64,000 bases of DNA, from assembly GCF_028368995.1 (NCBI RefSeq), contig NZ_JAQNDL010000001.1:3264001-3328000 (forward strand), in the 5' to 3' direction. This document shows, piece after piece, positions 2,931-63,110 of this stretch; position 1 is the first letter of the stretch; each line of letters begins with the position of its first letter. Made by a program: the position numbers and the translations under genes. The notes under the pieces were generated by a model. The model did no database searches. It worked only from the letters and a program-made list of their open reading frames with translations, and was not told the DNA's origin. The DNA comes from Nannocystis bainbridge (lineage in GTDB: Bacteria; Myxococcota_A; Polyangia; Nannocystales; Nannocystaceae).

Positions 2931-3148
2931 CGCCTGCTCCCGAGAAGGGGAGCCGGAGCATGCCGCGATACGTCGTAGGCTTTCAACTGTCGCGGTCGCG
3001 CCCAGGCTGTCCATTTGGACAGGTGATGCGCTCGATCCCGCGCCGCGATCGGGGCATCCCCCGGCATTTGGGTGGCGCTCGCGGGGCCATCCTTGCAGGT
3101 ACAGATCGCTCCGAGATCCTCCGCGCGGCCCGTGATAAAAGCTTCGGC

Positions 3149-3619
3149 ATGACGACCTCCCGGACCCCGTGGACCCTCGCGCTGTGCCTCGCCTCCCTCG
3201 TCGCCTTGCCGAGCTGCAAGAAGGAAGCGACGACGTCCCCCGACGGCGACGGCGGCAACGGTGACGCGGCGGCGGGCGACGGCGGGGGCAACGGCGGCGG
3301 CGGGGGCGGCTCCGGGGACGTGAACGAGGAGCCCCTCACCGCCGACTCGTTCGAGGAGGCGATGCAGGCCAAACAGGGCGATGTCGCCGACTGCTTCGCC
3401 CAGGCCAAGGCGGCCAAGCCCGAACTGGCCGGCAAGCTGGCGATCGACGTGACGGTGGCCGGCGACGGCACGGTGTCGGCGATCAAGTTCACCGACTCGA
3501 GCACGATCAAGGAGGCGAGCATCACCTCCTGCATCGAAGAGAAGGCCCGCGGCTGGAAGTTCGGCAAGACCAGCGACGGCAACCCGATGACGCTGGGCTA
3601 CTCGCTCAATCTTTCATGA
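3149..3619 (+). CDS. Lipoprotein with AgmX/PglI-type (TonB C-terminal-like) domain
   Basis: Signal peptide ending LPSC, a Gly-rich linker, then DVADCFAQAK...LAGKLAIDVTVAGDGTV...ITSCIEEKARGWKF. Confidence 0.75.
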   Translation: MTTSRTPWTLALCLASLVALPSCKKEATTSPDGDGGNGDAAAGDGGGNGGGGGGSGDVNEEPLTADSFEEAMQAKQGDVADCFAQAKAAKPELAGKLAIDVTVAGDGTVSAIKFTDSSTIKEASITSCIEEKARGWKFGKTSDGNPMTLGYSLNLS

Positions 3620-4128
3620 GGCCCGACGCGCGGGGGATCTCCTCGCCTGTCCTCGAGGACAGGCCGATACCGACCGCCCGCGCCGCGCTGCTCGCCTGCC
3701 TCCCCCTCGCCTGCAGCTCAAAGACCGAAGGCAGCGCGAGCGCGACCACCGACCCGGGCACCACCCAGCCGGAGTCGACGTCGACCACCGGCACCTCTGC
3801 CGCACCGACGTCGGCCACGGGCTCGTCGTCGACGGCGACCACTACCGCCGGCCCGAGCACCTCGACGACCTCGATGACGACCTCGACCTCGACGGGCGTA
3901 GAGACCGGCCCGCTCGGGGCCTGTGCCCTCGAGCCCGTCACGGTGCGCTGCGACAACTTCCTCGTCGGCTACTACTTCGATCCAGTGACGATGACCTGCA
4001 AGTCGTTCGACCACGGCGAGTGCGGCGGCGAGGTCGTCCCGTTCGAGACGCTCGCGGACTGCCTCGTCGCGTGCGAGGGCTGCGAGACCGACTGTGAGAC
4101 CTCGACAGGCTCTTCGAGCGGCGCTTGA
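3616..4128 (+). CDS. Lipoprotein with Thr/Ser linker and BPTI/Kunitz-like domain
   Basis: PLAC lipobox; CALEPVTVRC...YYFDPVTMTCKSFDHGECGGEVVPFETLADCLVAC has Kunitz six-Cys spacing; start uncertain. Confidence 0.75.
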   Translation: MRPDARGISSPVLEDRPIPTARAALLACLPLACSSKTEGSASATTDPGTTQPESTSTTGTSAAPTSATGSSSTATTTAGPSTSTTSMTTSTSTGVETGPLGACALEPVTVRCDNFLVGYYFDPVTMTCKSFDHGECGGEVVPFETLADCLVACEGCETDCETSTGSSSGA

Positions 4129-4234
4129 GCACGCGTCGGCACGATCGCGGCACCGAACGAGCGAGCGCCAGTCGCCGCCCTGGGGCGCGTTCGCGTGACA
4201 GATCCGAACCCCGGTGGCATGCTGTGCGGCGTTC

Positions 4235-5461
4235 ATGTCGATCGCCCGCCTCCAGCTCAAGGACTTCACGGTCTTCAAGCAGGTCAGCTTCGAGTTCTGC
4301 CCGGGGATCAACGTGCTCATGGGCGAGAACGGCACGGGGAAGTCGCACGTGCTCAAGGCGATGTACGCGGCGCTGCGTGGGACCGAAGAGGTCGCCGAGT
4401 CGAAGAATGGTCCACTGACCGACGAGACCCGCCCTGAGATCCTGTACTTCGTCAAACTCATGTGGGTCTTTCGCCCAGATTCGCTCTCTCCTCGTCGCCT
4501 GCTCCGCCGCGGAAGCGACAAACTCTGGGAGGTCCAGCTCGTCGATGCTCGCAGAAACAAGCTGAACATGCGCTGCGAGCCGCGGGGACGCGAATTCGCG
4601 TCGGTGGACTCCGACCTGCAACCTCAGCGCTCCCTGTTCGTCCCGCCGCGCGAAGTCCTGGCGATGTACAAGGGCTTCGTCGCCGCCTACGAGGGCCGCG
4701 AACTCGACTTCGACGAGACCTACTACGACATCTGCAAGGCCCTCGGAGCAGCCCCGCTCCGCGGTGCGCGTGCAGAAGCGATCCGAAACCTGCTCGCGCC
4801 CTTGGAAAAAATCCTGGGCGGGAAGGTGCTGCTGAAGGGCGATCGCTTCTACGTGCAGCAAGGCGACGCCGAGACCGAGGCCCATCTGCTCGCCGAAGGA
4901 TTGCGGAAGATCGCCGGCCTCGCCTACCTCGTGGCCAACGGTTCGCTGACGCGTGACACGGCGTTGTTCTGGGACGAACCCGAGGCCAGCCTGAACCCGC
5001 GGCTCGTCGTACAGGTGGTCGAATTCCTGCGCGCGCTGGCACGCGCCGGCGTGCAGGTGTTCCTCGCCAGCCACGACTTCTTGTTGTTGCACCGACTCTC
5101 GCAACCGACCGAGCATGCGCTCGATTCGGAGGTGCCGATCCGGTTCTTCTCGTTGCATCGGCCGAAGCCGGACGCGCCGGTCGAGGTCGAGACCGGGGCG
5201 ACCCTCGCGGACATCGAGCACAACGCGATCCTCGACGAGTTCGCTCGCTACTACGACGACGAGCGCGCGTACTCCTGGCGAGAGATGACGGCCGATGCGC
5301 CCCCGCCCCCGCCGTCGAGGCAGCCGGGCAAAAAGGTCCGCAGGGCCGCCGCGAAGACTCCTGCGCGATCCGTCACCGCCAAGGTCCGTACCCGGAAGGT
5401 CCCAGCGGGGCGATCGAAGAAGCAGCCTTCAGCGCGCAAGAAGGCTGCGAAGAAGTCATGA
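4235..5461 (+). CDS. ABC-type (AAA_15/AAA_21-like) ATPase with Lys-rich C-terminal tail
   Basis: Walker A GENGTGKS, degenerate signature LAEGLRK, Walker B/D-loop LFWDEPEASLNP, H-loop ASHD. Confidence 0.9.
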   Translation: MSIARLQLKDFTVFKQVSFEFCPGINVLMGENGTGKSHVLKAMYAALRGTEEVAESKNGPLTDETRPEILYFVKLMWVFRPDSLSPRRLLRRGSDKLWEVQLVDARRNKLNMRCEPRGREFASVDSDLQPQRSLFVPPREVLAMYKGFVAAYEGRELDFDETYYDICKALGAAPLRGARAEAIRNLLAPLEKILGGKVLLKGDRFYVQQGDAETEAHLLAEGLRKIAGLAYLVANGSLTRDTALFWDEPEASLNPRLVVQVVEFLRALARAGVQVFLASHDFLLLHRLSQPTEHALDSEVPIRFFSLHRPKPDAPVEVETGATLADIEHNAILDEFARYYDDERAYSWREMTADAPPPPPSRQPGKKVRRAAAKTPARSVTAKVRTRKVPAGRSKKQPSARKKAAKKS

Positions 5462-8523: not shown

Positions 8524-8666
8524 TGGCACGGCTGCAGCCGTGAGGGGCCGACTCGCCGTCGTCGGCTTCGATGGGGATTTGTGCTTGCGAGCAAGGCGTG
8601 GGGCGACTGTTCGACGGCCAGGGCTGGCCGCCGAACAGACGCCTCTTCGCGACCATAACGGCGTGT

Positions 8667-8915
8667 CCTCGGACCGCGACGATTCGCCGCTCGAAGTTCT
8701 GACGCGTCGGTGACGGGACGTCCTCGGGCCGCGGTGAGTCTCTGCTCGAAGTTCTCGATGCGTCAGTGACGGAGCGTCTTCGACCGCGACGAGTTACCGC
8801 TCGAAGTTCTCGGCGCGTCAGTGACGACGAGTTCTCGACCGCGACGAATCTCCGCCCGAAGTTCTCGGCGCCTCAGTGACGGCGAGGTCTCGACCTCGAT
8901 GAATCACCGTCTCGC
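8667..8915. repeat. Degenerate 55-bp tandem repeat, about 4.5 copies
   Basis: CGAAGTTCT recurs at 8692, 8747, 8802 and 8857. Confidence 0.9.
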
Positions 8916-9491: not shown

Positions 9492-9600
9492 GCGGCCATG
9501 ATAGCCGCTCGGCTCCGGATCGCAGTCCAGGGAGAAGTCCGGGAAGCATCCGGGGCGCGCCGGCGACCTGTCCGATGAGACATCCTACGGGCGCAGGGCG

Positions 9601-11346
9601 TCACTCCGGAGCCGGCACCGCGAGCACGGCGATCTCGCCCTTCTCGGAGCCGACGGCCATGCGCGCGCCGGCCGGGTCGAAGGCGATCGCGGTGACGCGG
9701 CCCTTCTTTTCAAAGACCTTCTGGCTGGCCAGCAGCTCGCCGCCCGGGTAGGCGAGCAGCACCAGCTCGCCGTCGAGCTTGCCGATCGCCACTCGCTTGC
9801 CGTCGGGGTGGAAGGCGAAGGTCGTCACGCCCTGGCTGGCCTTCTGCAGGGCGGCGTGGGCGGGCTTGCCCTTGGCGAGGGCGTAGCTCTGCAACCACTG
9901 GGCGGTGGCGGACCAACCGCTGAGCCGGCACAGCACGACGAGGTGCTCGCCGGACGGATCGAAGCACAGTTGATCGAGCGCGCCGCCGTTGTGGGTCGGC
10001 TCCTGCTTCCAGACGGTGCGTCCGCCAGCGACAGCGACCCAGCGGATCTGGCTGCCGCCGTATTCACCCCACAGCACGTGCTGGCCGTCGGGAGACACCA
10101 GGGCGATCGGGTAGGTGCTCGGCGGGGGACCGCCGACGCGCGCGCGCTCGGGCCAGACAGCAGCGCCGGGCTTCGAGATCGTGCGCAGCGCGACGCCGGT
10201 CCCCGTCACCAGCGCGAGGATCTCGCCGGCGGCATCGATGCTCGAGAGCGAGACGCTCGTCAGGGGCGAGTACTCGTCGTAGGCGACCTCGCGCTCGACG
10301 TCGCGGTCCGGCTCCCACACCAGCACGCGCGCGCCGCTGTCTTGCAAGCTGAACACCATGCGGCCGTCGGGCAGAAAATCGATGCCGCCGCACTCCCACG
10401 CGTCGCACTTGGGCGCGAAGGTCCGCTGGCGCTCGCCGGTGGCGATATCGACGCGGCTCAGCAGATGATCGGGCCCGCCGCGATCGGGCGACTGCGCGAC
10501 CACCAGCCAGGTACCGGACGGATCGAAGCGCAGGCGATGAATCGGCTTGGTGCGATCGGGGCCGCGATAGCGGTGTAGCGCGGCGAACGGGCCGGCCGGG
10601 GCCTTCGCCTTGCGAGCAGGCTTGGCAGCGACGGGGGCCGGGTTGGCAGCCAGAGCGTCGGCGAAGCGCTCGATGTCCGGGGCCTCGCTGCCGGTCGGCC
10701 GGACGACGATCGACTGCTGGTCCGACTTCGGCCGATCGACGACGAAGCCGGCCTCGACCAGCGCATCGCACACGCGCCCGGCGTCGCCGCGCCAGTGGAG
10801 GTGGAGCTTCCCGGTGAGGCGCCCGAAGGCGTCGAAGGCGTCGTGCGACTGCTCGTGCCAGAACACGGCGGTCTGCTCCGGGCTGCGCTCGCGCTCGGCG
10901 ACGATCTCCCAGCCCGCGCTCTGGGTCGAACCGGCGCACGGGAAGGCGAGCACCTTGCGCTTGCCGAGCGCCGCGAACACTTCGATGAGCTCGATCAGAT
11001 CGGAGGTGGCGCCTTCGGAGGCCGGGCTGAGCACGAGGGTGCCGTGCTCGGCGTAGTCGTCGCGCTGCTTCTTGCTCTCCTCGATGCGCACGACCAAATT
11101 GCGCCGCGCAAAGGCCATCTGCAGCTCGGCCCGCGAGGCGCCCCACCACATCGGCAAGGGCCGCACGAGCGCGCCCTTGCTGTCGAAGGCCCCGTCGGCC
11201 GCCCGACCCCAGTAGACGAAGCCGTACCCCTCACCCTCGTCGCGCGGGGAGAACTCGGCGAGGGCGTCGTCGTCGACCGCGGCGAAGACGTCGATGCTCT
11301 CGACGTCGCGGAGGGTCCGCTTGAGGAGCGTCCGGGTGATCGTCAC
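9601..11346 (-). CDS. WD40 beta-propeller protein with two N-terminal DUF6891-like repeats
   Basis: WD40-like blades (LRFDPSGTWL, FAFHPDGKRVAIG, IAFDPAGARMAVG). The N-terminal motifs FVYW..AFD...LPMWWG and VFWHEQSHDAFD...LHLHWRG repeat. GTG 11346 is preferred over ATG 11358 because TATGCT lies 7 nt upstream. Confidence 0.75.
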   Translation of the reverse strand: MTITRTLLKRTLRDVESIDVFAAVDDDALAEFSPRDEGEGYGFVYWGRAADGAFDSKGALVRPLPMWWGASRAELQMAFARRNLVVRIEESKKQRDDYAEHGTLVLSPASEGATSDLIELIEVFAALGKRKVLAFPCAGSTQSAGWEIVAERERSPEQTAVFWHEQSHDAFDAFGRLTGKLHLHWRGDAGRVCDALVEAGFVVDRPKSDQQSIVVRPTGSEAPDIERFADALAANPAPVAAKPARKAKAPAGPFAALHRYRGPDRTKPIHRLRFDPSGTWLVVAQSPDRGGPDHLLSRVDIATGERQRTFAPKCDAWECGGIDFLPDGRMVFSLQDSGARVLVWEPDRDVEREVAYDEYSPLTSVSLSSIDAAGEILALVTGTGVALRTISKPGAAVWPERARVGGPPPSTYPIALVSPDGQHVLWGEYGGSQIRWVAVAGGRTVWKQEPTHNGGALDQLCFDPSGEHLVVLCRLSGWSATAQWLQSYALAKGKPAHAALQKASQGVTTFAFHPDGKRVAIGKLDGELVLLAYPGGELLASQKVFEKKGRVTAIAFDPAGARMAVGSEKGEIAVLAVPAPE

Positions 11347-11629
11347 GCGACGGAGCATACCCGCGCCTCACCGCCGATGTGTGGTGCAGTGAACGGCATC
11401 CGCGGATCCACAACGATGCACCCGGAGAGCGGCGGAGCACGAGGCCGTCCAAGGGCTGGACCTCGAACTGCGCTGACGGCCACGGCGACGACCCTTGCGA
11501 TTCCCGCCGCAGTGGCCGCCAGGGGAAGAGGCGCAGCGCGACGCTCGCGGCTGGGGCCCATGCGCGGCCGGTTCGTCGCCACCGTCTCGAACGCGTCGGC
11601 CTCGTGGGAAAGAGCGGTTCCTGAGCCAA

Positions 11630-14611: not shown

Positions 14612-14950
14612 GCGATCAGGCAGGTCGGCCGGGTCTTCGCAGCAAGGGAATCGACCGCGGCGACCTGGTGGAAAGGCCAGGTTGATTCGGCGCCCGCCGG
14701 CGCCGAGGCATCGGGCGCTCGGTCGCTTCCTGGCGAAGTCAATCCTGCGCGATCGGCAGGTCCGCCGGTGCTCGCAGCAAGGGAATAGAAGGCTGCGACC
14801 TGGCGGCAAGGCCAGGTCGATTCGCCACCCGCCGACGCGCCGAGGCATCGGCGCGCTCGGTGGTGCGATCGGGCAGGTCCGCCCGCGCGGAGGATCTCGC
14901 AGCAAGGAAATCGAACGCTGCGACCTGGAAATCAGGTCAATTCGTCACGC
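14612..14950. repeat. Three copies of a structured ~100-135 bp intergenic element
   Basis: GCGATC..GGCAGGTC..TCGCAGCAAGG.AAT..GCGACCTGG..CAGGT..ATTCG starts at 14612, 14749 and 14865. Confidence 0.85.
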
Positions 14951-14951: not shown

Positions 14952-16310
14952 TCACACGCCGGTGACGTAGACGATGCCGAGGCACATCTCGTCGCCGGTG
15001 CCCTCGCCCCATAGGATGTCCTTGGGCTGCATCTGCACGCCGTTTTCGACCGGCTGGTTGGCGGCCGTGTTGTCCCACTCGCACTCGAGGCGCAGCTGAT
15101 CGCCGGGACGGACGGTCACGGGGGCGGTGAGCTGGTAGCTGCCCTGCCAGTTGAAGTCCCAGCGCGGGATGTCCAGCAAACAACTGTTTTGCCCGCCGGT
15201 GACGGCCAGCGAGCCGCGCACGCCGCGGGTGTGCATGTGCAGCGCGGCGGCGTGGACGACGAAGGGATCGCCCGCCTGCAGCCCGCCGTCGGGGAACAGC
15301 AGCGGGAGGTAGTTGCTGACGTCGGCGGTGAAGCTGTGGACGACGCCGGCCTCGCCGGCGGGGATCAGCATCGGCTCGCTGCCCTGGACCCACGCAGGGT
15401 TGGTGAACGGCATCATCACCGCGACCTTGTCGACGCTCGCGGCGGTGCGGATCTGGATCCGCGACTGATCGGGCTTGGCGCCCGGGTAGGTGTGGTAGTG
15501 CATCTGCACCGCGACGAGCGAACCCGGCTGCACTTTGATTCCTGTCCCTTCGGGCATGTCCCCGGGGTCACCTCCGGGCACCCAGGCGCCGAGCCAGGGG
15601 ATCCGTCCGCCGACCTGATCGCCGCCCGGGCCGCCGTAGCAGAGATAGCCGGGATCGGGGTCGGCGTCGTCGAGCGCGCGATAGGTCTCAGCCTGCTCGG
15701 GCGGGACGGCGAAGGCGATCACGTGATGCACGATCTGCCGCTCGCCCGGAGTCACGCTGAGCGCGGTGATGAAGGTCTCCTCGTCTTCGGGCCAGGGCAG
15801 CAGGAAGCAGCGGTACTCATCGGGCGCGATCGTCGGGGTGTAGGGCTCGGGCAACTGGAGGTCGATGTCGAACTCGATCGGCTCGGGCGCCTGCGCGGGC
15901 GCGGGAGCGTCGGCTGGGTCGCCCTCGGGTGCGCCGAGCTCGACCCAGTCGAGCAGGGTCTGGCGCGCTTCGTCGTCGATCGAGCGGTCGTGGAGATAGG
16001 TGCCGCAGGCGGCGTCGGGCGGCCACGGCGGCATGGTCCCGGTCATGAGCGAGGCCGGCAGCGCGCTGGCGACGGCGCTGGCTTCGGCGTACGACGCGAG
16101 CGAGAACGGGGCGAGGTTGCCGGGGCTGTGACAGCCGACGCACTTGGCGTCGAGGATCGCCTTGACGTCGCGCCAGTAGGTGACGGCCGCGGCCTCGCCG
16201 GTGGTCGAGGTGCTCGCGGCGTCGACGGCAGTGTCGGAGCCGTCGCCCGGGGCGTCGCCGCAAGCGACGAGGAGGAGGCCGAGCGGGAGGATGGCGGTGA
16301 TGCGCTGCAT
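14952..16310 (-). CDS. Copper type II ascorbate-dependent monooxygenase-like lipoprotein with N-terminal CxxCH
   Basis: LVAC lipobox; KCVGCH; Cu-ligand motifs VHHVI, QMHYH, LHMHTRG and DEMC; WDFNWQ. Confidence 0.85.
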   Translation of the reverse strand: MQRITAILPLGLLLVACGDAPGDGSDTAVDAASTSTTGEAAAVTYWRDVKAILDAKCVGCHSPGNLAPFSLASYAEASAVASALPASLMTGTMPPWPPDAACGTYLHDRSIDDEARQTLLDWVELGAPEGDPADAPAPAQAPEPIEFDIDLQLPEPYTPTIAPDEYRCFLLPWPEDEETFITALSVTPGERQIVHHVIAFAVPPEQAETYRALDDADPDPGYLCYGGPGGDQVGGRIPWLGAWVPGGDPGDMPEGTGIKVQPGSLVAVQMHYHTYPGAKPDQSRIQIRTAASVDKVAVMMPFTNPAWVQGSEPMLIPAGEAGVVHSFTADVSNYLPLLFPDGGLQAGDPFVVHAAALHMHTRGVRGSLAVTGGQNSCLLDIPRWDFNWQGSYQLTAPVTVRPGDQLRLECEWDNTAANQPVENGVQMQPKDILWGEGTGDEMCLGIVYVTGV

Positions 16311-16359
16311 GACCTCGAGTTCAGCACGCGAGGTATGGAGAGTGTGTGGAGGCGCCGCG

Positions 16360-17754
16360 CTACGACGACTGCGGCGGGCCGCTGATGGGGCCGCGGAGCG
16401 TCGCTCGCAGGCCGCGGGGCAGCTCACCCGCGAGCGTCAGCGTGAAGCCGGCGCGGCTGCACACCTCTTGCGAGATCGCCAGGCCGAGGCCGCCGCCCTT
16501 CGGGTCGCGGCGGCGGGCCTCGTCGGTGCGGAAGGTGCGGTCGCCGATCTTCGGCAGGTCGGCCGGGGGCACGCCGGGGCCGTCGTCGACGACCGTGAGC
16601 GTGAACTCGGCCCCGGAATCACCCGTCTCTTCGAGCAGGATCGCCACGTGGCCGCCGGGCTCGCCGTGGGCGACCGCGTTGTGCACGAGGTTGGCCAGCG
16701 CTTGCTCGGCCATCGCCGGGTTGCAGCGGGCCCACAGCGCGGCGTCGGGGCGGGCGTCGTGGACCTCGATGCCGCGGGTGCGTCCGAGCGCGGCGAAGCG
16801 GCGGGCGACGCGGTCGACGAGGGCGCAAAGGTCCACGCGGAGGTCGCCGTGGAGCGGGTCGGCGCCCTCTTGCAGGCGGCACGCCAGGTAGAGGTTGTCG
16901 ATGAGCGAGCCCATGTAAACGACATCGCCGATCGCCCCGCGGACGAGGCCCTGATCCTCGGCCGGGCGCGCGTCGGCGGCCACCTGCTCGAGCGCGATCT
17001 GCAGCGAGGCCAGCGGGGTGCGCAGGTCGTGGGCGATGTTGGCGAGGTGCTGCTCGAGCGCGCGGTGGCGGGCCTCCATGCGGGCGGCGTCGGCGGCGAT
17101 GCGCGCGTGGGCCTGGTCGAGCAGGGCCGACAATTGGCCGAGGTCGTCGCGCGCGGGGTCGCCGGCGGACGCGTAGCCGGCGGCCTGCCCGACCTGCTCG
17201 GTGGCGCGGCGCAGCTTCTCGAGCCGCAGGGCCATCGGCCGCACGGCGAAGAAGCTGGCGAGGCCGACCGCCGCGGCGACGCTGAAGGCGAGCAGGCCGA
17301 AGATGATGAGCAGGGCGAACCGCCGCTCGGACGGGCTGAGCCGCCAGCGCAGCTGGACCAGAGCGCACGGGCCGTGGTCGGCGGCGCGGCGCAGACTGGC
17401 GCCGCCCCACGGCTGGAAGAAATACATGCGCGCCGGCGCGGTCTCGCCGGCTTGCAGGCGCGCGAACAGCTGCAGATCGATCGGTTCGGTGCCGGCGACC
17501 GCGGGCCGCAGGTCTTCGTCGTAGACGACGAGGTCGAGCTCCGGACCGTGCTGCGCGATGAAGCGGCCCGGGTCGCGCTCGCACTGCGCCAGCGAGATCG
17601 CGTCGAGCTGCGGCGTCAGCACGCCGATGCGCCGGATCGCCTGCTCGATGAACAGCGACGGCATCACCACCGCGACCACGGCGACGCTGAGGCCGGCGCA
17701 GATCGCCGCGGCCAGGAACACCCGCCCGGACAGGCCGCGGAGGATCCGGCTCAC
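16360..17754 (-). CDS. Membrane HAMP sensor histidine kinase
   Basis: Two TM segments, H-box AHDLRTPLASL, N-box NLVHNA, DDGPG and GGGLGLAI; GTG overlaps the regulator stop. Confidence 0.93.
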   Translation of the reverse strand: MSRILRGLSGRVFLAAAICAGLSVAVVAVVMPSLFIEQAIRRIGVLTPQLDAISLAQCERDPGRFIAQHGPELDLVVYDEDLRPAVAGTEPIDLQLFARLQAGETAPARMYFFQPWGGASLRRAADHGPCALVQLRWRLSPSERRFALLIIFGLLAFSVAAAVGLASFFAVRPMALRLEKLRRATEQVGQAAGYASAGDPARDDLGQLSALLDQAHARIAADAARMEARHRALEQHLANIAHDLRTPLASLQIALEQVAADARPAEDQGLVRGAIGDVVYMGSLIDNLYLACRLQEGADPLHGDLRVDLCALVDRVARRFAALGRTRGIEVHDARPDAALWARCNPAMAEQALANLVHNAVAHGEPGGHVAILLEETGDSGAEFTLTVVDDGPGVPPADLPKIGDRTFRTDEARRRDPKGGGLGLAISQEVCSRAGFTLTLAGELPRGLRATLRGPISGPPQSS

Positions 17755-18954: not shown

Positions 18955-19796
18955 CCGACCCCGACCTGCGTGCCCTGCCGCTGCCGCGCCCCGAGAGCTT
19001 TTCGTACGAGGAGCGCGAGCGCGTCGGGGTCATCACCCTGACGCGGCCCGATCGCTTCAACGCGCTGACGTTCCAGGTCTACCGCGAGCTGACCGACCTG
19101 TTCACGGTGATCGACCGCCGGGCCCACGCCGAGGGCGGGGCGCGGGCGCTGGTGCTGCAGGGCGCGGGGCGGGCGTTCTGCGGCGGCGGCGACGTCGACG
19201 ACATCATCACCCGGCTGTTCGAGCGCGACGCCGAGGCGCTGCTGCGGTTCACGCGGATGACGGGGGAGCTGATCCACGCGATGCGCCGCTGCAAGCTGCC
19301 GATCGTCGCCAGCGTCAAGCGCGTGGCCGCCGGCGCCGGCGCGGTGATGGCCCTGGCGAGCGACCTGCGGGTGATGGGCAAGGGCTCCTTCTTCTCGTTC
19401 CTGTTCCCGCAGGTCGGGCTGTCGGGCGCCGACATGGGCGCGAGCTGGCTGCTGCCGCGGGTGGTCGGCCTCGGCCACGCGAGCGAGATCCTGCTGCTCG
19501 GCGACCGGGTGACGGCCGACCGCTGCGCGCAGATCGGGCTGGCCACCCAGGTGGTCGAGGACGAGCCCGACCGCGACGCGGTCGACCGGGCCGCGTTCGC
19601 GCTGGCCAAGCGGGTGGCCGACGGGCCCCACTTCGCCGCCCGCATGACCAAGACGATGCTGCAGCAGGAGCTCGACATGGACTTCACCGCGGCGATCGAG
19701 GCCGAGGCCCAGGCCCAGACCCTGTGCATGCAACACCCCGACTTCGCCGAGGCCGACCAGGCCCGCCAGGCCAAGCGCCCGCCGACCTGGCGCTGA
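18951..19796 (+). CDS. Enoyl-CoA hydratase family protein
   Basis: ITLTRPDRFNALT, RAFCGGGD, AAGAGAVMALASDLR, VGLSGADMG. Confidence 0.92.
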   Translation: MTDPDLRALPLPRPESFSYEERERVGVITLTRPDRFNALTFQVYRELTDLFTVIDRRAHAEGGARALVLQGAGRAFCGGGDVDDIITRLFERDAEALLRFTRMTGELIHAMRRCKLPIVASVKRVAAGAGAVMALASDLRVMGKGSFFSFLFPQVGLSGADMGASWLLPRVVGLGHASEILLLGDRVTADRCAQIGLATQVVEDEPDRDAVDRAAFALAKRVADGPHFAARMTKTMLQQELDMDFTAAIEAEAQAQTLCMQHPDFAEADQARQAKRPPTWR

Positions 19797-44538: not shown

Positions 44539-44585
44539 ATGTCCCCGAAGACATGCCCGTGAGGACATGTCCTTCGAGACATGAT
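44539..44585. repeat. 14-bp period array of TGTC-N6-GACA
   Basis: GACATG at 44550, 44564 and 44578. Confidence 0.9.
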
Positions 44586-47036: not shown

Positions 47037-47125
47037 CATGTCCCGAGCGACATGTCCAGAGAGACATATCCAGAGCGACATGCCCAATTCGACATGCCCG
47101 CGAGGACATGCCCCACGCGACGTCC
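47037..47125. repeat. 14-bp period array of TGTC-N6-GACA, 6 units
   Basis: GACA at 47049, 47063, 47077, 47091 and 47105; GACG at 47119. Confidence 0.93.
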
Positions 47126-47130: not shown

Positions 47131-47539
47131 GCGGGAGGAGGAGCGGACGAGCGGGGTCGTAAGCCGGGTTTTGTCCCTGGGTTCGTCGCCTTGCCCAGGT
47201 GGCGGTCATTCTTCTACGCGGCACTACCCGGGACGGGACGGGCAGCCCCTGGTGACTTCCTTGCGGAAGCCAGCCGTGCCCCTGTTTGGCCTTGCTCCGG
47301 GTGGGGTTTACCGTGCGGTCCCTGTCGCCAGGTCCCCGGTGCGCTCTTACCGCACCTTTTCACCCTTACCCGCGCGGACGCGGGCGGTTTTATTTTCTGT
47401 GGCACTTTCCTTCGGGTCGCCCCGACTGGCCTGCGCCAGCACCCTGCCCTGCGGAGCCCGGACTTTCCTCGAGTGCTTCAGCCCGTGAGGGCCTGTCACC
47501 CGCGAACGCCTTGTCCCCCTCGGCCGCTCCTCTTCCCGC
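47131..47539 (-). ncRNA. rnpB: RNase P RNA (type A)
   Basis: Minus strand contains GAGGAAAGTCCGGGCTC, GAAAGTGCCACAGAAA, GGTGCGGTAAGAGCGCACC, GGTAAACCCCACCCGGAGCAAG and ACAAAACCCGGCTTA; the ends given include the extended P1 stem. Confidence 0.97.
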
Positions 47540-50171: not shown

Positions 50172-51284
50172 CTAGCGGCCCCCCTTCAGGAATTCGCGGA
50201 TCGAGTCCATGATGTCGTCCTTGCTCTTGATCTCGGAGGTCACGAGGGCGATGTTCTTGGCGAACGCGGACCGCAGGTCCTTGATGAACTGGCCCGAGCC
50301 GTAGGGCGACTCGACCTGGCCGTAGCCGAACTGGTTGCACTTGGGCAGCAGCTGCTGCTTGACCAGCTGGATGCAGGTCGCGGTGTCGTCGACCGACCAG
50401 TTGTCGCCGTCGCTGAAGTGGAACGCGTAGATGTTCCACTGCTCGGGGCTGAACTCGGCGTCGATCAGCTCGGCGCACAGCTTGTAGGCCGAGCTGATCA
50501 TCGTCCCGCCCGACTCGCGGGTGCGGAAGAAGACGTCGCGCTCGACCACCCGCGCGGTCGCGTCGTGGATGATGTAGCGCGACTCCAGCCCCTTGTACTG
50601 GCTGCGCAGCCACGTATCGATCCAGAACGACTCGATGCGGACGATCTCTTTCTGCTCGTCGCCCATCGAGCCCGACACGTCCATCATGTAGATGATCACC
50701 GCATTGGTCTGCGGGCGCGGGTCGGTGCGCCACGAGCGATAGCGGCGGTCCTCGCGGATCGGCACGATCACCGGGCGCGCCGGGTCGTACGAGCCCATCG
50801 CCACCTGGCGGCGGAGCGCGCGCTTGTAGGTCGCCTTGAAGTTGCGCAGCGACTCGGGGCCGGTGTTGCGCAGGCCGACATAGCGGTCTTTGCGGGTCTC
50901 TAACGAATGCGTGCCCTTGGGCTGGATGTTGGGCAGACCGAGCTCTTCTCCCATGATTTGAGCGAGCTCTTCGAGCGTGACCTCGACCTCGAGCGACTTG
51001 CCGCCCTCCTGCTCGCCGGCCTTGCCCGCGCCGCCCGGGCCGTCCTTGCCCGAGCCGCCGACCGGGTCGCAGGGCTCGCCGTCGCCCTGGCCGACGCCCT
51101 GGCCGCTGTTGTCGCCGTGCACGAACCGCGGGATGTTGATCTGCGGCATCGGGATGGCGACGGTGCCCTGGCCCTTTGGCGCCACCATGTCGCCGCGAGA
51201 GATGTATTTGCGCAAGTTCTGCCGAATTTTGCCGCGAATGATCTCTCGGAAGCGGCTGTGGTCCTGCTCGATGCGCGAAATCAT
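50172..51284 (-). CDS. DUF444 (YeaH/YhbH) family protein
   Basis: [29 protein letters not shown]. Confidence 0.95.
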
Positions 51285-51451
51285 GGACAACCAGAGTATG
51301 CGAGGTGTGCGGCAGAAGCGAGGCGGATGCGAGGCTACGCGCGCGCAGCGGCGTAAACGCGAATCTGGCCGCGGTGCGCGCCGACGTGCCTGCCCGCGCG
51401 TCGCTTCCGCGGTGGCCGCTTCCGCGACCCTCGTGTACAGTCTCGGTTACG

Positions 51452-53503
<2,052 letters not shown>

Positions 53504-55579: not shown

Positions 55580-56233
55580 TCACTGCCAGCAACGGGCCAC
55601 GCCGGGCAGCGTCGCCTTGACGTAGGCGCGGCGCGTGACGTCGAGGTAGTCGAGCAGCACCTCGAAGCGCCCGCACTGCAGCTCGACCCACTCCGGGCTC
55701 GGCTCGCCGACCGCCACGCAGCCCCACCGCTCGAGCTGGGCCCGCCAGTCGGCCACCCGCGCGGTCCCGGCGGCCCCATCGGCGGCCGCGATGCTGGCCT
55801 CCGCCGCCGCCACGCTGCCGGAGATCGGCTTCGGCTCGATGATCGCGTTCAGCGGCGGTGGCTCGCCCTCCGTCGCCGTCTGCAGCAAGACCACCGTCGC
55901 CGGCAGCTCCTGCAGCGGGAAGCTGCAGCCCCACTTGGTGTAGCCCGGCCGGGTCGCCGAGCACCACATCATCCGCTCGGGCTCGGCGCAGCCGATCGCC
56001 ACGTCGGCGGCCGGCCGCGACAGCGCGCAGATCGCCGCGAGCGGCTCCGCGATCATGTCCTTGCCGCACACCGGCAGCGCCGCCGGGTCGACCTCCGGCG
56101 GCGGCGACTCGGGCGGCGAGGCCGGCGGCGGCGTCTGGACCGGCGGCGGCGAGGGTCGCTCACAACCTGTCTCGAGAGACAGCATCACTACCCACCAGGC
56201 GGAGCGGCCGATCGACACGAGCCCCAAGTTCAC
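55580..56233 (-). CDS. Hypothetical exported protein
   Basis: Hydrophobic N-terminus with TGC, Pro-rich linker, several Cys. Confidence 0.6.
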   Translation of the reverse strand: MNLGLVSIGRSAWWVVMLSLETGCERPSPPPVQTPPPASPPESPPPEVDPAALPVCGKDMIAEPLAAICALSRPAADVAIGCAEPERMMWCSATRPGYTKWGCSFPLQELPATVVLLQTATEGEPPPLNAIIEPKPISGSVAAAEASIAAADGAAGTARVADWRAQLERWGCVAVGEPSPEWVELQCGRFEVLLDYLDVTRRAYVKATLPGVARCWQ

Positions 56234-57053: not shown

Positions 57054-58403
57054 TTAGCGCAAGCGCAGCCGCGGCGCGACGACGAGGGCGTGCAGCAGCA
57101 GCGCCAGCGCGAACCACCCCGCCGCCATCAACACCGAGAGGTCGCCCTTGGCCGCCAGCGCGACCAGCACGAACACGCTCGAGCCTACGTAGATGATCGG
57201 CGCCCACGGGTAGAAGCCGACGCGATACGGCCGCGGGTGGTCTGGATCCTTGCGCCGCAAGGAGACCACGCTGGCGACCGCGAGCGAGCCCGAGATGAGC
57301 ATCGCCGCCGCCGCGTAGTCCATCAGCTGCTCGAAGCGATGGCTGAGGATCAGCGCGATCGCCAGGACCGCCTGCAACCACAGCGCGACCATCGGGGTGC
57401 CGAAGCGGGCGGACAGCCGGCCCGCCGCGGGGAAGCAGTGGCCTTCCTCGGCCATCGCGTAGGCGATCCGTGAGCCGGTCATGACGGTGCCGTTGATCGA
57501 GCCGAGCATCGCCAGCAGGATCATCAGCGTCACCACGATCACGCCCGCGTGGCCGAACAGCGCCCCGGCGGCCGCGGTGCCGGCCTCGCCGACCCCGGCC
57601 AGCTTGTCGATCTCGAACACCGAGAGGTAGCCGGCGCACAGCACGAAGTAGAGGATCGCGACCATGAGCGTCCCGCCGACCACCGCGCGCGGCAGGTTGC
57701 GCCCGGGGTCGGCGATCTCCCCGCCGATGTAGATCGCCGCGTTCCACCCGGAATAAGCGAAGTAGATCGACAGGTATGCCTGGGCCACGGCGGAGGCCGA
57801 AGGGCTGGGGTCGAGCCCCGACCGCAGCGCCTCGGCCGAGACCTCGACGGTGCCGATGTCGCCGACCACGAACAGACTGACCGCCAGCAGCACCGCCAGC
57901 GGCACCATCGTCAGCACCAGCTGCACGCGCCCGGACAGCACGATGCCGATGTGATTGAGCCCCGTGAGCGCGACCACCAGCGCGATCGCCCAGAACGTCG
58001 GGCCGGCCAGCGTCACCAGCCCGAGGTCGACCGGCGCGGCGAAGCTCGGCCCGAGCAGCACCGGCAGCTGGAACGCGGCTGTCCCGACGGCCATGGTCGC
58101 GAGCGAGCCCGGGAACGTCGCCAGCAGCTGCAGCCAACCCGTGGCGAACGCGATGCCCGGCCCGTAGGCCGCGCGCAGGTACGGGTACTCGCCGCCCGCC
58201 CGCGGCATCATCGCTCCGAGCTCGGCCACGCACAGCGCCCCGCACAGCGCCGCCAGCCCGCCGGCGACCCACATCAGCAGGAACCACAACGGGCTCTGCA
58301 CGTGGCTGGCGACCACCGGCGGGGCGATGAAGATGCCGATGCCGAGCATCGAGCCCGCGACCAGCGCTTGCGCCGCCCAGGGGCCGAGGTGTCGCGTCTC
58401 CAT
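57054..58403 (-). CDS. APC family amino acid permease
   Basis: GSMLGIGIF, AELGAMMPRAGGEY, FAYSGWN..GEIADPGRNLPR. Confidence 0.93.
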   Translation of the reverse strand: METRHLGPWAAQALVAGSMLGIGIFIAPPVVASHVQSPLWFLLMWVAGGLAALCGALCVAELGAMMPRAGGEYPYLRAAYGPGIAFATGWLQLLATFPGSLATMAVGTAAFQLPVLLGPSFAAPVDLGLVTLAGPTFWAIALVVALTGLNHIGIVLSGRVQLVLTMVPLAVLLAVSLFVVGDIGTVEVSAEALRSGLDPSPSASAVAQAYLSIYFAYSGWNAAIYIGGEIADPGRNLPRAVVGGTLMVAILYFVLCAGYLSVFEIDKLAGVGEAGTAAAGALFGHAGVIVVTLMILLAMLGSINGTVMTGSRIAYAMAEEGHCFPAAGRLSARFGTPMVALWLQAVLAIALILSHRFEQLMDYAAAAMLISGSLAVASVVSLRRKDPDHPRPYRVGFYPWAPIIYVGSSVFVLVALAAKGDLSVLMAAGWFALALLLHALVVAPRLRLR

Positions 58404-59479: not shown

Positions 59480-60705
59480 GCCGCGAGCCCGACGACGCAC
59501 CTGTCCCCGCGGACAGCCACGAGCCGGCTGTCTCGAAGGACAGCTCATCTGTCTCCGAGGACAGCGGGGAGTCTCCTGTCTCCGAGGACAGCCGACCCGA
59601 GCGGGCCGACCGGCGCCGCGAAGGCGAAGCCCCGGCCCGCCGCGGCCTGTCCGAGGCCGACCTCGAGCTCCTGCGCGAACCCCCGCTGCAGACCGCCGAC
59701 CTGCCCGGCGTCGGCGGCGCCATCCGCTCGCGGCCCGAGGACTTTCACGTCCGCGAGGTCCCGGCCTACGACCCCGACGGCCGGCCGAACGCGCACGTGC
59801 TGCTGCTGCTGACCAAGCGCGGCGTCGGCAGCGAGGACGCGATCGCCGAGGTCGCGCGCCAGCTGGCGATCCCCCGCGCCGAGCTCGGGCTCGCCGGGCT
59901 CAAGGACAAGGACGCGGTCACCGAGCAGTGGATCTCCCTGCCGGCCGCCGCCGCCGCGCGCCTCGAGCAATTCGTCCATTCGGACATATCCCTCGGGACA
60001 GCTCACCCGCACGGCAACAAGCTGCGCCGCGGCCACCTGCGCGGCAATCGCTTCACCATCGTCGTGCGCGACCTGGCCGTACCCGTCGACGAGGCGCTGG
60101 CCCGCTGCCAGGCCAAGGTCGAGCGCCTGCGCGCGCTCGGCGGGCTCGACAATCTCTACGGCGAGCAGCGGTTCGGCAGTGACAATTTGGCGCGAGGCCT
60201 CGCCGCTCTGGCGCGCGGGCGCCGGCGCGGTCGCGCCGACTTCCTGCTCAGCGCCGGCCAGTCGGCGCTGTTCAACCTCTACCTGCTCGAGCGGCGCGCC
60301 CGCGGCCTCATGCGCGAGGTCCTGCGCGGCGACATCCTGAAGAAGACCGCCACCGGCGGCCTGTTCGAGTGCACCGACCCGGCCACCGACAAGGCCCGGC
60401 TCGATGCCGGAGAACTCGGCATCACCGGGCCGATGTTCGGCAGCAAGATGCGCGCGCCGGGCCCGGACACCCCCTCCGGCGCCCTGGAGGCGGAGATCCT
60501 GGCGCGCGCGGAGATCGACCTGACGACGCTGCAAGCCTTGGGTCACACGCTCGAGGGGACGCGGCGGCCGCTGCAGATCGCGCCGCTCGCGGTCGACATC
60601 GAGGTCGCGCGCGACGACTTCGGCCCCGGGATCTCCCTCAGCTTCGAGCTGCCCTCCGGGAGCTACGCGACGGCCCTCCTGCGCGAGCTTCAGCGCCCGG
60701 TCTGA
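59476..60705 (+). CDS. truD: tRNA pseudouridine(13) synthase TruD
   Basis: PEDFHVRE, AGLKDKDAVTEQW, GHLRGNRF, YGEQRFG, QSALFN, ELPSGSYAT; the true start may be about 150 nt further in. Confidence 0.93.
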   Translation: MSREPDDAPVPADSHEPAVSKDSSSVSEDSGESPVSEDSRPERADRRREGEAPARRGLSEADLELLREPPLQTADLPGVGGAIRSRPEDFHVREVPAYDPDGRPNAHVLLLLTKRGVGSEDAIAEVARQLAIPRAELGLAGLKDKDAVTEQWISLPAAAAARLEQFVHSDISLGTAHPHGNKLRRGHLRGNRFTIVVRDLAVPVDEALARCQAKVERLRALGGLDNLYGEQRFGSDNLARGLAALARGRRRGRADFLLSAGQSALFNLYLLERRARGLMREVLRGDILKKTATGGLFECTDPATDKARLDAGELGITGPMFGSKMRAPGPDTPSGALEAEILARAEIDLTTLQALGHTLEGTRRPLQIAPLAVDIEVARDDFGPGISLSFELPSGSYATALLRELQRPV

Positions 60706-61464: not shown

Positions 61465-61905
61465 GTGGCCGCCGACACCAATCAGGACGACGAAGAGGGC
61501 ATCAACAGCATCAACGTCACCCCGCTGGTCGACGTCATGCTCGTGCTGCTGATCATCTTCATGGTCACCACCACGAAGATCCAGGAGTCCGAGGCGCTGT
61601 CGATCGACAAGCCCGACGCGCAGACCGGGCAGAAGCTCGAGCCCAAGCAGCACCACATCCTGCTGACCTGCGCGAAGGACGGCCGGCTCGAGGTCGACCA
61701 CAAGCCGGTCGACGGCGACGCCGCGATCAAGGAAGCGATCACGCGCAAGCTGGCCGAGGGCCGCGACCTCCAGGGCGTCATCCAGTGCGACGAGGAGGCC
61801 CAAGTCAAGTCGATGATCCACCTCGTCGACCTGCTGCGCGACGCCGGCGTCAAGAAGTACGCCATCGCCACGGAGAAGCCCAAGGCCGCTCCCGCCCCGT
61901 CCTGA
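61465..61905 (+). CDS. ExbD/TolR biopolymer transport protein
   Basis: INVTPLVDVMLVLLIIFMV. Confidence 0.95.
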   Translation: MAADTNQDDEEGINSINVTPLVDVMLVLLIIFMVTTTKIQESEALSIDKPDAQTGQKLEPKQHHILLTCAKDGRLEVDHKPVDGDAAIKEAITRKLAEGRDLQGVIQCDEEAQVKSMIHLVDLLRDAGVKKYAIATEKPKAAPAPS

Positions 61906-61917
61906 GCGAGCACTGCG

Positions 61918-62718
61918 ATGCGCCTCGGCGGCAGCCTCCTGTCTCGGTCCGGCTCCGGTGCGTTCGGCTCGCTCGGGCTCCACGCCGTGCTGGCGCTGCT
62001 GCTGTCGTATCTGTCGGTCGAGCCGCCGCTGCCCGAGGAGCCGCGCATCGACATCGTCGAGTTCGAGATCCCCGAGCCCGAGCCCGAACCGGAGCCCGAG
62101 CCCGAGCCTGAGCCCGAGCCCGAGAAGCCGCAGGAGACCCCGCCCGAGCCGCAGCCGGTGCCCGAGGTCCGCAAGGACGAGCCCCCGCCCAAGCCGCGGC
62201 CCAAGGCCAAGGCCGACCCGCAGCCGCAGGCCGAGGCCGACGAGGCCCCGCCGCCGCTGCGCATGGACGCCAGCCAGACCACCACCACCGGCAACAGCGG
62301 CGTGAAGATCGGCGTCGGCACCCCCGGCGGCACCCCCGGCGGCACCGGCAGCCCCGACTCCAAGGGCAAGGGCGGCAGCCCCAAGGGCACCCCCGGCGGC
62401 ACCGGCGACGGCGGCCCGACCTGGGAGCCGCGCGGCGAGCTCTACATCCGCGAGCTGCCGGCCGTCATCAACGTGCCGCAGGAGCAGTGCCCGGCCGTCC
62501 AGGAGCTCGGCATCGAGGGCGTCGTCATCCTCACCGTCCAGGTCCGCCGCGACGGCTCGGTCAAGGACGTCAAGGTCGCCAAGGACATCGGCCACGGCTG
62601 CGGCAAGATCGCCGCCAAGGCCCTGCGCAAGGCCAAATTCCGGCCCGCGCTCGCCACCAACGGCCAGCCCGCCGACTTCGAGCTGCGCTACGAATACGAG
62701 TTCCAGCTCGGCGACTGA
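61918..62718 (+). CDS. TonB-family energy transducer
   Basis: SLGLH TM segment, (EP)n repeat, C-terminal GIEGVVIL..DGSV..FRPA. Confidence 0.92.
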   Translation: MRLGGSLLSRSGSGAFGSLGLHAVLALLLSYLSVEPPLPEEPRIDIVEFEIPEPEPEPEPEPEPEPEPEKPQETPPEPQPVPEVRKDEPPPKPRPKAKADPQPQAEADEAPPPLRMDASQTTTTGNSGVKIGVGTPGGTPGGTGSPDSKGKGGSPKGTPGGTGDGGPTWEPRGELYIRELPAVINVPQEQCPAVQELGIEGVVILTVQVRRDGSVKDVKVAKDIGHGCGKIAAKALRKAKFRPALATNGQPADFELRYEYEFQLGD

Positions 62719-62960
62719 GCCGCCGGCGACTCGCGCATCCCCGCGGCGCGAGTGATTCGGCCGCATCGACCTGGGGACCCGCGCCCGCCGGCGATCGCAC
62801 GTCCTCGCAGCCGCGTCCTGGACCCGGCCATGCGCGCGCTCGCGGCCGCCGATTGCTCCTCGCCGGCGATCGGCGCTATCGTCCGGGCCGCCGTGCCGCG
62901 CGCGCTCCGTCCTCACGACCTCGGTCCGTCCGCTGCGGCCCGCCGCGCCCGGCTCTCCCG

Positions 62961-63110
62961 CCTGTCCCTCGGGACATGTCTCTCCGGCCCGCCCGCCGCT
63001 GCCGGGCACGCCCCGGTCTCTCACATGTCCCTCCGGACATGTCCCTCCGGCGCGTCCGCTCGGGCCCGGCTCCCCTTTATCCTGGCTCTCGGGACATGTC
63101 TCTTCGGACT
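62961..63110. repeat. Cluster of TGTC-N6-GACA doublets overlapping the start of the last gene
   Basis: Cores at 62963, 63026 and 63097. Confidence 0.85.

Follow-up and report, generated by a model that had tools for sequence, protein, structure and literature searches.

The 64,000-nucleotide stretch of the Nannocystis bainbridge genome considered here (contig NZ_JAQNDL010000001.1, positions 3,264,001 to 3,328,000; the whole of it is called the window, and coordinates are counted from its first base) carries, within its genes and between them, many copies of a short inverted repeat, TGTC-N6-GACA. All 30 exact copies listed in a first-pass annotation of this DNA are present where it placed them, a number far above the 0.64 expected from 100 dinucleotide-preserving shuffles of the window (standard deviation 0.81, largest count 4). 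The fuller form of the unit, TGTCC-N4-GGACA with at most one mismatch, occurs 43 times against 1.75 expected. The copies are found as single units and as arrays in which units abut head to tail with a 14-bp period.

In the left part of the window, single exact units stand at 3008-3021 (TGTCC-N4-GGACA) and 3648-3661, and a single unit with one mismatch at 9569-9582, 19 nt past the stop codon of a minus-strand WD40 gene (9601-11358). Two abutting one-mismatch units (15543-15570) lie within the open reading frame (ORF) 14952-16427, and 19795-19854 is a 14-bp tandem array of 4.4 copies of GAGAGCATGTCYYC according to Tandem Repeats Finder, with 94% matches between copies over 19795-19847. The gap between a solute-binding-protein gene (stop at 22155) and an ABC transporter permease gene is filled by two to three abutting units (22162-22199); the ABC ATPase gene (ABC_tran domain) holds a one-mismatch unit at 23320-23333, and the gap that separates it from a glycosyltransferase gene holds three unit sites between 23867 and 24076 (at 23867, at 23972 with an abutting unit at 23986, and at 24063). 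The units at 23867 and 23972 are themselves parts of two copies of a direct repeat of about 105 bp (23830-24000, in the context GACCTCGAACCA...TGTCCCCGAGGACATGTCCATA).

From here on many units could be followed through a 20-kb syntenic segment of the window aligned with four genomes of the same genus. The exact unit at 24836-24849, inside the glycosyltransferase gene, is identical in all four related species. The convergent gap before queC (27909-28110) has three CCTGTCC-N4-GGACAGG units, at 27909, 28017 and 28097; those at 27909 and 28017 are kept in 4/4 species while N4 differs and the flanks are unalignable. Over 27909-28075, three units of this gap have a common longer right flank (GGACAGGCTGAGACG-like, three times), so that at least one sub-family with a conserved flank of about 12 nt exists; the genome-wide position table indicates that this flank is not general. 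Within queC itself lies an exact unit (28555-28568) conserved in five close species. An exact unit at 32383-32396, in a tandem gap, adjoins a conserved block downstream; a unit is found at the aligned place in three of the four species and a copy two bases shorter in the fourth, and the length of this gap ranges from about 50 to about 320 nt across species. The unit at 33501-33514, 11 nt past a stop codon, is kept in 4/4 species with a variable N4. An array of about four units (36057-36117) occupies the convergent gap after an SDR gene and folds on both strands (plus, -28.9 kcal/mol, z -4.2; minus, -33.3 kcal/mol, z -5.4), and the double junction GGACATGTC-N-GGGACAGGTCC at 36784-36813 is kept in four species with single changes. 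Within ORF 37845-41288 there is a degenerate array (38731-38795), of which units 38763 and 38777 are kept in 4/4 species, and a one-mismatch unit at 39305-39318, at whose aligned place the other four species have no unit. A one-mismatch unit in a sulfatase domain region (40766-40779) is identical in 4/4 species, the exact unit at 42510-42523 is kept in 4/4, and a degenerate array of two to three units (43786-43825) includes a unit at 43804 that is identical in 4/4.

Further right, three abutting units (44540-44581) lie just past the stop of a minus-strand FAD-monooxygenase gene and fold on the minus strand at -30.4 kcal/mol (z -5.8). On the 3' side of the gene for RNase P RNA (minus strand, 47144-47522; class A, 205 bits over its full length in Rfam), at a distance of 19 nt, starts a run of about six units (47037-47125); with a period of 14 and 5.6 copies over 47037-47114 (Tandem Repeats Finder), this is the longest 14-bp array of the window. 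The only Rfam matches in the window at gathering scores are this RNase P RNA and a single tRNA; none falls on units or arrays. The remaining copies are a single exact TGTC-N6-GACA site at 56168-56181, a one-mismatch unit within an amino-acid permease gene (58080-58093), four non-abutting CTGTC-N6-GACAG units spaced 27, 21 and 27 bp apart after a BamD-like gene (59502-59590), two abutting one-mismatch units (59973-60000), a unit at 62963 followed by a 14-bp array at 63023-63050 (2.0 copies, Tandem Repeats Finder; together 62963-63050), and a one-mismatch unit at 63765-63778. Among the arrays named in the first-pass annotation, those at 19795-19854 and 47037-47114 are thus recovered by Tandem Repeats Finder; those at 22162, 36057, 38731, 43786 and 44540 go unreported by that program and are visible by inspection as two to four abutting, more degenerate units.

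The motif extends to the whole genome (11.05 Mb scanned, 71.5% G+C, five contigs). When arms are counted as TGTC-Nx-GACA, the spacing x=6 gives 3663 sites and every other x from 0 to 19 gives between 29 and 175, including the codon-phase-matched spacings x=3, 9 and 12 (66, 48 and 63 sites); the spacer is therefore fixed in length, and it is free in sequence, as had been claimed from the window alone: 605 different symmetrised N6 sequences are found, the commonest making up 5% of sites. Further peaks at x=20 (984 sites), for GACA-N0-TGTC (2237) and GACA-N14-TGTC (1305), and at a direct-repeat distance of 14 (3246) arise because these are harmonics of a 14-bp lattice, which bears out genome-wide the 14-bp periodicity that the first-pass annotation had seen. 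The position table yields the consensus gAC(A/C)-TGTCC-YYRR-GGACA-(T/G)GTc, matching the extended consensus proposed earlier (GAC(A/C)TGTC-N6-GACA(T/G)GTC), and carries no information further out; the core of the unit is a 14-bp dyad, TGnC(C/T)-N4-(G/A)GnCA. With the same genome read backwards as control, TGTCC-N4-GGACA occurs 1987 times without mismatch (control 3), 4258 times with one mismatch (control 161) and 7530 times with two (control 3152), and arrays of 2-8 in-register units number 1982 (control 1). Units with at most one mismatch thus amount to about 6,200 (control 164) and cover 124,152 bases, or 1.12% of the genome; GGACATGTCC, the word formed where units abut, has 956 copies, about 100 times the mononucleotide expectation. 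Sites occur roughly once per 1-2 kb of chromosome, in and between genes, and their density is even on all five contigs (58-201 per full 250-kb bin). Mapping relative to origin and terminus, which the first-pass annotation had suggested, gave a flat profile on all five contigs, with density unchanged around the GC-skew switches of contigs C1 and C3. Thousands of evenly spread units agree with its view of a chromosome-wide dyad and not an ordinary regulon.

The most telling copies are those inside genes. In 4708 crude ORF interiors (5.72 Mb), which hold 845 of the 3663 exact TGTC-N6-GACA sites, a null in which synonymous codons were shuffled within each gene predicts 56.8 ± 8.0, which makes the enrichment about 15-fold; five other spacings came out at about 0.4-2.1-fold of the null, all with small counts. 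The excess at x=6 therefore stands under the codon-aware null that had been named as its proper test. Under a stricter definition (strong periodicity of third-position G+C, GC3, on both flanks) x=6 retains 329 sites against 2-49 for nine other spacings, and these 329 fall in all reading frames (30, 132 and 167), each needing rare A- or T-ending codons. The in-gene enrichment is not a codon artefact. It concerns the pair of arms and not the arm: TGTCC-N4-GGACA is found 517 times in ORF interiors against 14.5 expected (36-fold), and a single TGTCC or GGACA has a ratio of 1.00, the single word CATGTCC or GGACATG one of 1.50, and GTCC-N4-GGAC one of 1.16. Only the arm pair at the right spacing is favoured in coding sequence; single half-sites are not. 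This also removes DNA uptake sequences (DUS/USS) as candidates, since single oriented words are not enriched (1.00, 1.50) when the pair stands at 36. The near-cognate forms are depleted, with CGTCC-N4-GGACG at 41 against 155 expected and one-C forms at 31 against 98, and the tolerance of the unit differs from base to base: any base at position 3 remains 8-12-fold enriched and C5>T 28-fold, T1>C drops to 0.35, T1, G2 and C4 are nearly fixed, and a change of G2 is almost never seen. The outer T and A are present in two thirds of all GTCC-N4-GGAC sites in ORF interiors. The same order of tolerance holds between genes, where mismatches at pairs 0-4 number 33, 6, 208, 81 and 217 (tandem gaps).

Units are also tied to gene ends, a strong association absent from the first-pass annotation. 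Genes were defined by a crude filter based on GC3 (6246 ORFs, 74% of the genome, starts over-extended), and gaps as intergenic intervals of 20-600 bp. A unit is held by 55% of convergent gaps (5.9 units per kb), 25% of tandem gaps (2.2 per kb) and 12% of divergent gaps (0.75 per kb); 1786 of the 6246 genes have one within 150 bases downstream of the stop codon, and 671 have one at the 5' side. By our estimate intergenic DNA has some 18 times the unit density of genes. In many convergent gaps (CATG-N10)n runs the whole way from one stop codon to the other, and distances from CATG to CATG peak at 14 (3736), 28 (2065) and 42 (1458). An identity with intrinsic (Rho-independent) terminators is rejected: the position table shows no excess of T behind the unit, most stand-alone tRNA genes have an ordinary terminator made of a GC hairpin and a T-run, and a unit occurs in the 120 nt downstream of only 8 of 102 tRNA genes, in several cases beyond the terminator. 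A simple scan finds hairpin and T-run terminators in 131 of 4890 protein-gene 3' regions (72/2588 tandem, 59/2302 convergent), beside which units are not scarcer (odds ratios 1.12 and 1.73); where both occur, the unit lies after the T-run in 48 cases, inside the hairpin in 23 and before it in 18. The absence of a negative association also speaks against units as substitutes for terminators, a test that is weak because such terminators are so rare (131/4890). Between 27700 and 47600, a consensus scan returned no promoter-like sequence and seven terminator-like ones (3.5 expected), none of them on a unit. Just downstream of the units at 32383 and 33501, the non-coding blocks 32470-32520 and 33515-33600 are near-invariant in five species; these blocks may represent promoter or leader regions of the genes that follow, and the consensus promoter scan is empty there. 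Elsewhere in the genome, contig C2 (about 2556665-2559233) carries around 25 tRNA genes in 2.6 kb, with spacers richer in A+T than the rest of the genome, which may be a tRNA gene island.

The motif has a narrow phyletic range and, within it, is well kept. Orthologues of one window gene in named Nannocystis species share 92-94% identity with it, which places this genome in that genus. In 61 genomes of the order, where a reversed-pattern control gave no match anywhere, TGTCC-N4-GGACATGTCC was found in all 11 Nannocystis genomes (1-311 matches, scaling with assembly size) and in all six genomes of a sister genus, in number in only two of these (82 and 17 matches); 44 genomes of 14 other genera had 0-3 matches. 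This survey of relatives, another check proposed at first pass, thus places the motif in number only in Nannocystis and two sister-genus genomes. One viral contig of IMG/VR (L112, match at 1001-1024, near the contig end) carries the double-junction pattern and could be host-derived DNA or a phage of Nannocystis. In the aligned 20-kb block, 16 window units were compared with four species, and in 52 of the 64 comparisons the corresponding position also holds a unit. Between genes, units persist even where their flanks can no longer be aligned, the gap changes about six-fold in length and N4 differs between species; the number of units in arrays also differs between species at the same gap. The alignment of queC shows no insertion at the unit, and distant species read CGTCC..GGACG-like at the same codons. 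At codon third positions that coincide with specified bases of units, identity is 96/96, against 0.839 at other third positions and 0.468 at A/T ones; this figure is indicative and not a probability, because it comes from one block in four related, non-independent species.

Whether the element acts as DNA or as RNA was approached through its pairing properties, and here single units and arrays part ways. In single units the middle stem pair (positions 3/12) is often mismatched, with no covariation in coding sequence and modest covariation only outside it (C-G 162 against 104 expected); complementarity inside N6 is what the marginals predict (0.99-1.04), an isolated unit folds at -8.1 kcal/mol (z -1.1), and compensated arm changes were not seen among the five species of the 20-kb block. 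For single units this is evidence against a hairpin. There is likewise no sign that selection acts on the sense transcript. Loop words are about equally frequent on both strands (CCGAAG 16, CTTCGG 17), and a sense-strand wobble bias suggested by the window, where all nine wobble-type units appeared by eye to be G.U, vanished genome-wide, the inner pair having no sense bias (C.A 143, T.G 128). In the CATG-pair data, tandem gaps do favour G.U over A.C (756 against 529), and the G.T/A.C ratio follows the replication strand, at 2.69 where the sense strand is G-rich and 0.66 where it is C-rich; on the G-rich strand, the C-containing arm is the more eroded. Among CATG-N10-CATG pairs on the G-rich strand, GG mismatches outnumber CC ones about 4:1 and G.T outnumber A.C 2.7:1, the G/C ratio genome-wide being about 1.15. 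Extended outer stems around CTGTCC..GGACAG, which are long in two species, were considered and dropped, as genome-wide their extension past the first flanking pair is near chance (36% continuing per step against about 30% expected).

Arrays behave differently. In a set of 3736 CATG-N10-CATG pairs, the bases beside CATG covary as partners in a 10-bp stem, with odds ratios of 1.77/1.84 at level 1 and 1.95/1.98 at level 2 (z 6.2-7.5); taken as direct repeats the same bases give 0.98-1.23, and the junction's own two halves 0.55 and 0.92. Covariation restricted to hairpin partners therefore excludes tandem duplication of a palindromic 10-mer and mixture artefacts. Folding energies of window arrays lie between -29 and -33 kcal/mol (z -4.2 to -5.8), and some arrays consist of tandem copies that are nearly identical. 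The first-pass annotation had preferred a protein on duplex DNA to a hairpin or slippage; for single units this holds (the pair 36-fold enriched, half-sites at 1.00), and for arrays its dismissal of hairpin and slippage does not, given the hairpin-partner covariation and the near-identical tandem copies.

How can these two faces of the element be reconciled? Our tentative explanation, the one we lean towards while granting it somewhat less than an even chance, is that the unit is a duplex site for a putative symmetric DNA-binding factor, and that slippage expands such sites into hairpin-prone arrays at gene ends. A site of this type agrees with the enrichment of the pair only, with a position-specific code that leaves the middle base and the centre free, with constrained wobble bases and with the absence of selection linked to the transcript; the fixed spacing, the depletion of near-cognates, the even density and the position of units relative to T-run terminators were also counted in its favour. 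The 14-bp dyad would be read as double-stranded DNA by a homodimeric or multimeric factor that Nannocystis would share with part of a sister genus; we infer that this factor is a dimeric protein with an architectural role, either in organising the nucleoid or its topology or in marking the ends of transcription units. Sites would be kept chromosome-wide, within genes and between them, and would pile up where neither promoters nor reading frames are disturbed: behind stop codons, and most of all in convergent gaps. In such places 14-bp slippage could multiply them into head-to-tail arrays, in which each unit's right arm meets its neighbour's left arm in a GGACATGTCC-like junction; since adjacent junctions can base-pair into a 10-bp stem closed by a 4-nt loop, arrays are prone to form hairpins or cruciforms, and the covariation seen in them could reflect correction by template switching or selection for cruciforms.

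Several points weigh against this explanation. The hairpin covariation of arrays is not predicted by a dimer that reads half-sites singly. A residual excess of G.U on the sense strand persists after correction for replication (product of odds 1.76, z about 4.6; the GG/CC control for the same effect gives 1.2, z 0.8), although transcription-linked mutation bias could also produce it. For the array behind the RNase P RNA, the transcribed strand has a much more stable fold than the other (-42.4 against -22.2 kcal/mol), and the bias to 3' ends is what RNA 3'-end hairpins would show. The gene-context figures themselves are approximate because the ORF calls are crude. An ongoing mutational drive would produce this conservation and this loss of near-cognates just as selection would. 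From the geometry of B-DNA, abutting 14-bp sites would set successive dimers about 120 degrees apart, which is unusual for cooperative binding. Finally, the data yielded no candidate binding protein and do not allow one to be named; 219 of the 6246 crude genes are flanked by a unit on either side, and no family is conspicuous among them (best p 3.6e-3, n=3, uncorrected).

A bolder form of the same idea, which we regard as possible and yet rather unlikely, is an architectural code: an abundant, lineage-specific dimeric protein would read some 6,000-10,000 copies and polymerise on the arrays of convergent gaps, these serving as cruciform-prone anchors for topology, loop boundaries or the marking of self DNA, with selection keeping the sites through rare codons. 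If true, it would be a second, independent system of the HIP1 kind, and its bipartite dyad would make the binder directly fishable. We give about the same modest weight to the proposal that the units, and chiefly the arrays, are RNA 3'-end hairpins that end transcripts or shield them from 3' exonucleases, in the manner of enterobacterial REP elements, standing in for the T-tract terminators that are rare in so GC-rich a genome. Most genes do lack a T-run terminator, as our scan found one in only 72/2588 tandem and 59/2302 convergent cases, and this proposal best explains the order of gap classes (convergent 55%, tandem 25%, divergent 12%) and the hairpin-partner covariation of strongly folding arrays; arrays often fill a convergent gap to both stop codons, one follows the RNase P RNA, another lies between binding-protein and permease genes, a setting that resembles the classical malE-malF REP position, and the residual sense-strand G.U excess (z about 4.6) points the same way. 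It fails on the hundreds of in-gene units kept through rare codons and on mismatch tolerance: the middle stem pair is freely mismatched, a single unit folds weakly (-8.1 kcal/mol), and five species show no compensatory arm change. Loop words and the inner pair also lack a sense asymmetry, the wobble asymmetry is mostly linked to replication, there is no T-tract, tRNA genes use ordinary terminators and units are not scarcer at canonical ones. The explanations are not fully exclusive: whatever maintains the units, a transcript that runs through an array will form hairpins there.

The units might instead have no function for the host. A selfish or neutral hairpin repeat of the REP/REPIN or minisatellite kind, spread through single-stranded hairpins or slippage and surviving where it does least harm, would account for near-identical tandem copies, for unit numbers that vary between species at the same gap, for accumulation in convergent gaps (the usual safe-harbour pattern) and for arm erosion that follows the replication strand, as expected of DNA that is sometimes single-stranded; CGTC-tagged REPs, some of them reading TGTC, likewise occur without a dedicated transposase and also in genes, as described in PMC3733652. 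We find it doubtful all the same. Neither a Y1/RAYT transposase nor an enriched family of unit-bracketed genes was found in the genome, and the copies were not pasted from a master, because flanks and N4 are not common to them; nor are they pieces of one recently spread mobile element, in line with the first-pass annotation. Single units stay at orthologous places with arms conserved and centres free, and in-gene units arise by substitution, not insertion, and under constraint. Less likely still is a functionless mutational drive, in which sequence-specific repair or modification would convert near-matches into the full palindrome, as once proposed for HIP1; very-short-patch repair acts likewise on Dcm sites. 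Such a drive would deplete near-cognates and enrich the full form (41/155, 31/98 and 517/15) while leaving the GTCC-N4-GGAC total barely changed (1.16), the specifically low T1>C ratio (0.35) suits it, and the patchy phyletic pattern (11 Nannocystis genomes, two of six sister-genus genomes in number) would suit a mobile modification gene. It leaves the 14-bp arrays, the 3'-end bias and the hairpin covariation unexplained, however, and we know of no such system for a split 5+4+5 palindrome; for HIP1, the part of PMC5861425 available argues for selection and against biased repair. Very improbable, lastly, is that these are sites of a known myxobacterial nucleoid protein or global regulator, CdbA or the CRP-like MrpC. 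The half-sites of MrpC, TGTY and RACA, resemble TGTC and GACA, and their spacing is N8, the rarest spacing here (29 sites), which counts against MrpC. CdbA does bind more than 500 sites in and between genes, with 47% of its top 100 peaks intergenic (PMC7156744, in its available part), and its motif is a direct repeat, whereas ours is an inverted repeat with an A/T-containing core and a restricted phyletic range.

A tRNA gene (26905-26978, plus strand; Rfam 70 bits, tRNA-Met by aragorn) lies directly upstream of a zinc-ribbon/coiled-coil gene (26995-27807), and three unrelated tandem repeats are present at 8665-8914 (period 55, 4.5 copies), 14612-14861 (period 135, 1.8 copies) and 30921-31120 (period 52, 3.9 copies). 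An AAA_21 (AbiEii-like) ATPase gene (4214-5461), a TIR-domain gene beside a Ser/Thr kinase gene (31802-32371) and a PrkA and DUF444 pair (50172-53503) have ordinary annotations without a link to the motif.

Hyper-abundant palindromes kept by selection even inside genes are known mainly from cyanobacteria, in the form of HIP1, whose function has been a question for three decades; Nannocystis offers a comparable case in an unrelated phylum, with a more informative anatomy: two 5-bp arms, a fixed 4-bp gap, a per-position code and enrichment of the pair only. It also offers a second state, the 14-bp arrays, in more than half of convergent gene ends. Because a split dyad points to a symmetric binder and provides clean probes and mutant controls, the purpose of such a palindrome becomes directly testable in a culturable genus. 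About 1% of this genome is the repeat, and it marks gene ends where ordinary terminators are found at only about 3% of protein-coding genes; anyone calling genes, assembling genomes or designing expression constructs for these natural-product producers will have to reckon with the motif.

No description of the Nannocystis motif was found in print. Ribbon-helix-helix proteins (MetJ on met-boxes, omega on heptads, ParG) bind arrays of short units, abutting head to tail or in inverted order, with a fixed period and a dyad axis at every half unit, one dimer per unit, along which the protein polymerises; such arrays serve locally, as operators or as the centromeres of plasmids, and only a few copies exist, at promoters. 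The layout of the Nannocystis arrays fits such operators, and differs in its thousands of copies, found mostly at gene 3' ends and also in genes. The first-pass annotation had named Noc, SlmA and MatP as analogues. Their sites (NBS, SBS and matS) are 12-16-bp palindromes read by chromosome-organising dimers, present in tens of copies and excluded from the terminus or confined to it; some 6,000 units at even density on all contigs rule out regional sites of this sort, and the analogy does not hold. CdbA of Myxococcus xanthus, its further suggestion, is alike in having hundreds of sites in and between genes, and turns out to be a poor match: in the available part of PMC7156744 its site is a GC-rich direct repeat separated by 4 bp, bound with a Kd of 0.4-4 uM, and an orthologue exists in all sequenced Myxococcales, whereas the Nannocystis motif is an inverted repeat whose direct-repeat peak is only a lattice harmonic and which, outside Nannocystis, is limited to part of a single sister genus.

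The closest known kinds are the REP/BIME elements and the cyanobacterial HIP1. With REP, BIME and REPIN elements the motif shares a small palindrome in high copy number, located after genes, clustered and sometimes in genes; its own distribution (units in 55, 25 and 12% of convergent, tandem and divergent gaps, and 1982 arrays against 1 in the control) is of this type. As far as the available portion of PMC3733652 describes them, REPs are high-copy palindromes downstream of genes, between unidirectional or convergent ORFs and often clustered in alternating orientation; they measure 20-40 bp, with stems of 8-9 bp (CGTC) or 5-13 bp (GTAG), an unpaired tag at one end, a CCA-like tail and loops mostly of few types, and their in-gene copies are insertions that encode 20-30 residues. 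Myxobacteria are nowhere mentioned in that paper. Unlike REPs, the Nannocystis unit has 14 bp, its TGTC is a paired arm, there is no tail, N4 is free, abutment is at exactly 14 bp, and in-gene copies arise by synonymous substitution. Identity with REPs or REPINs thus fails on size, unpaired tag, tail, insertion-type in-gene copies and RAYT, as a search of the genome (90.5% complete) for this Y1 transposase (PF01797) gave no match, and the same search was positive in 6 of 14 control genomes. HIP1 (GCGATCGC) is likewise a hyper-abundant short palindrome; PMC5861425, in the part available, reports that it is over-represented 15-300-fold and conserved within and between ORFs, infers selection, states that there is no evidence of a peptide, RNA or gene-regulation role, and proposes a role in chromosome or nucleoid structure. 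The Nannocystis motif, 36-fold enriched in coding sequence with its wobble bases conserved, is over-represented by at least an order of magnitude (1987 against 3 genome-wide, 517 against 14.5 in genes), and its sites are conserved between species beyond background (52/64 and 96/96, in one 20-kb block). HIP1 is a contiguous 8-mer that overlaps methyltransferase targets; the motif described here splits its dyad 5+4+5 around a free centre, has a higher density in intergenic DNA than in genes, is drawn out into 14-bp arrays at gene ends and is carried by a different phylum.

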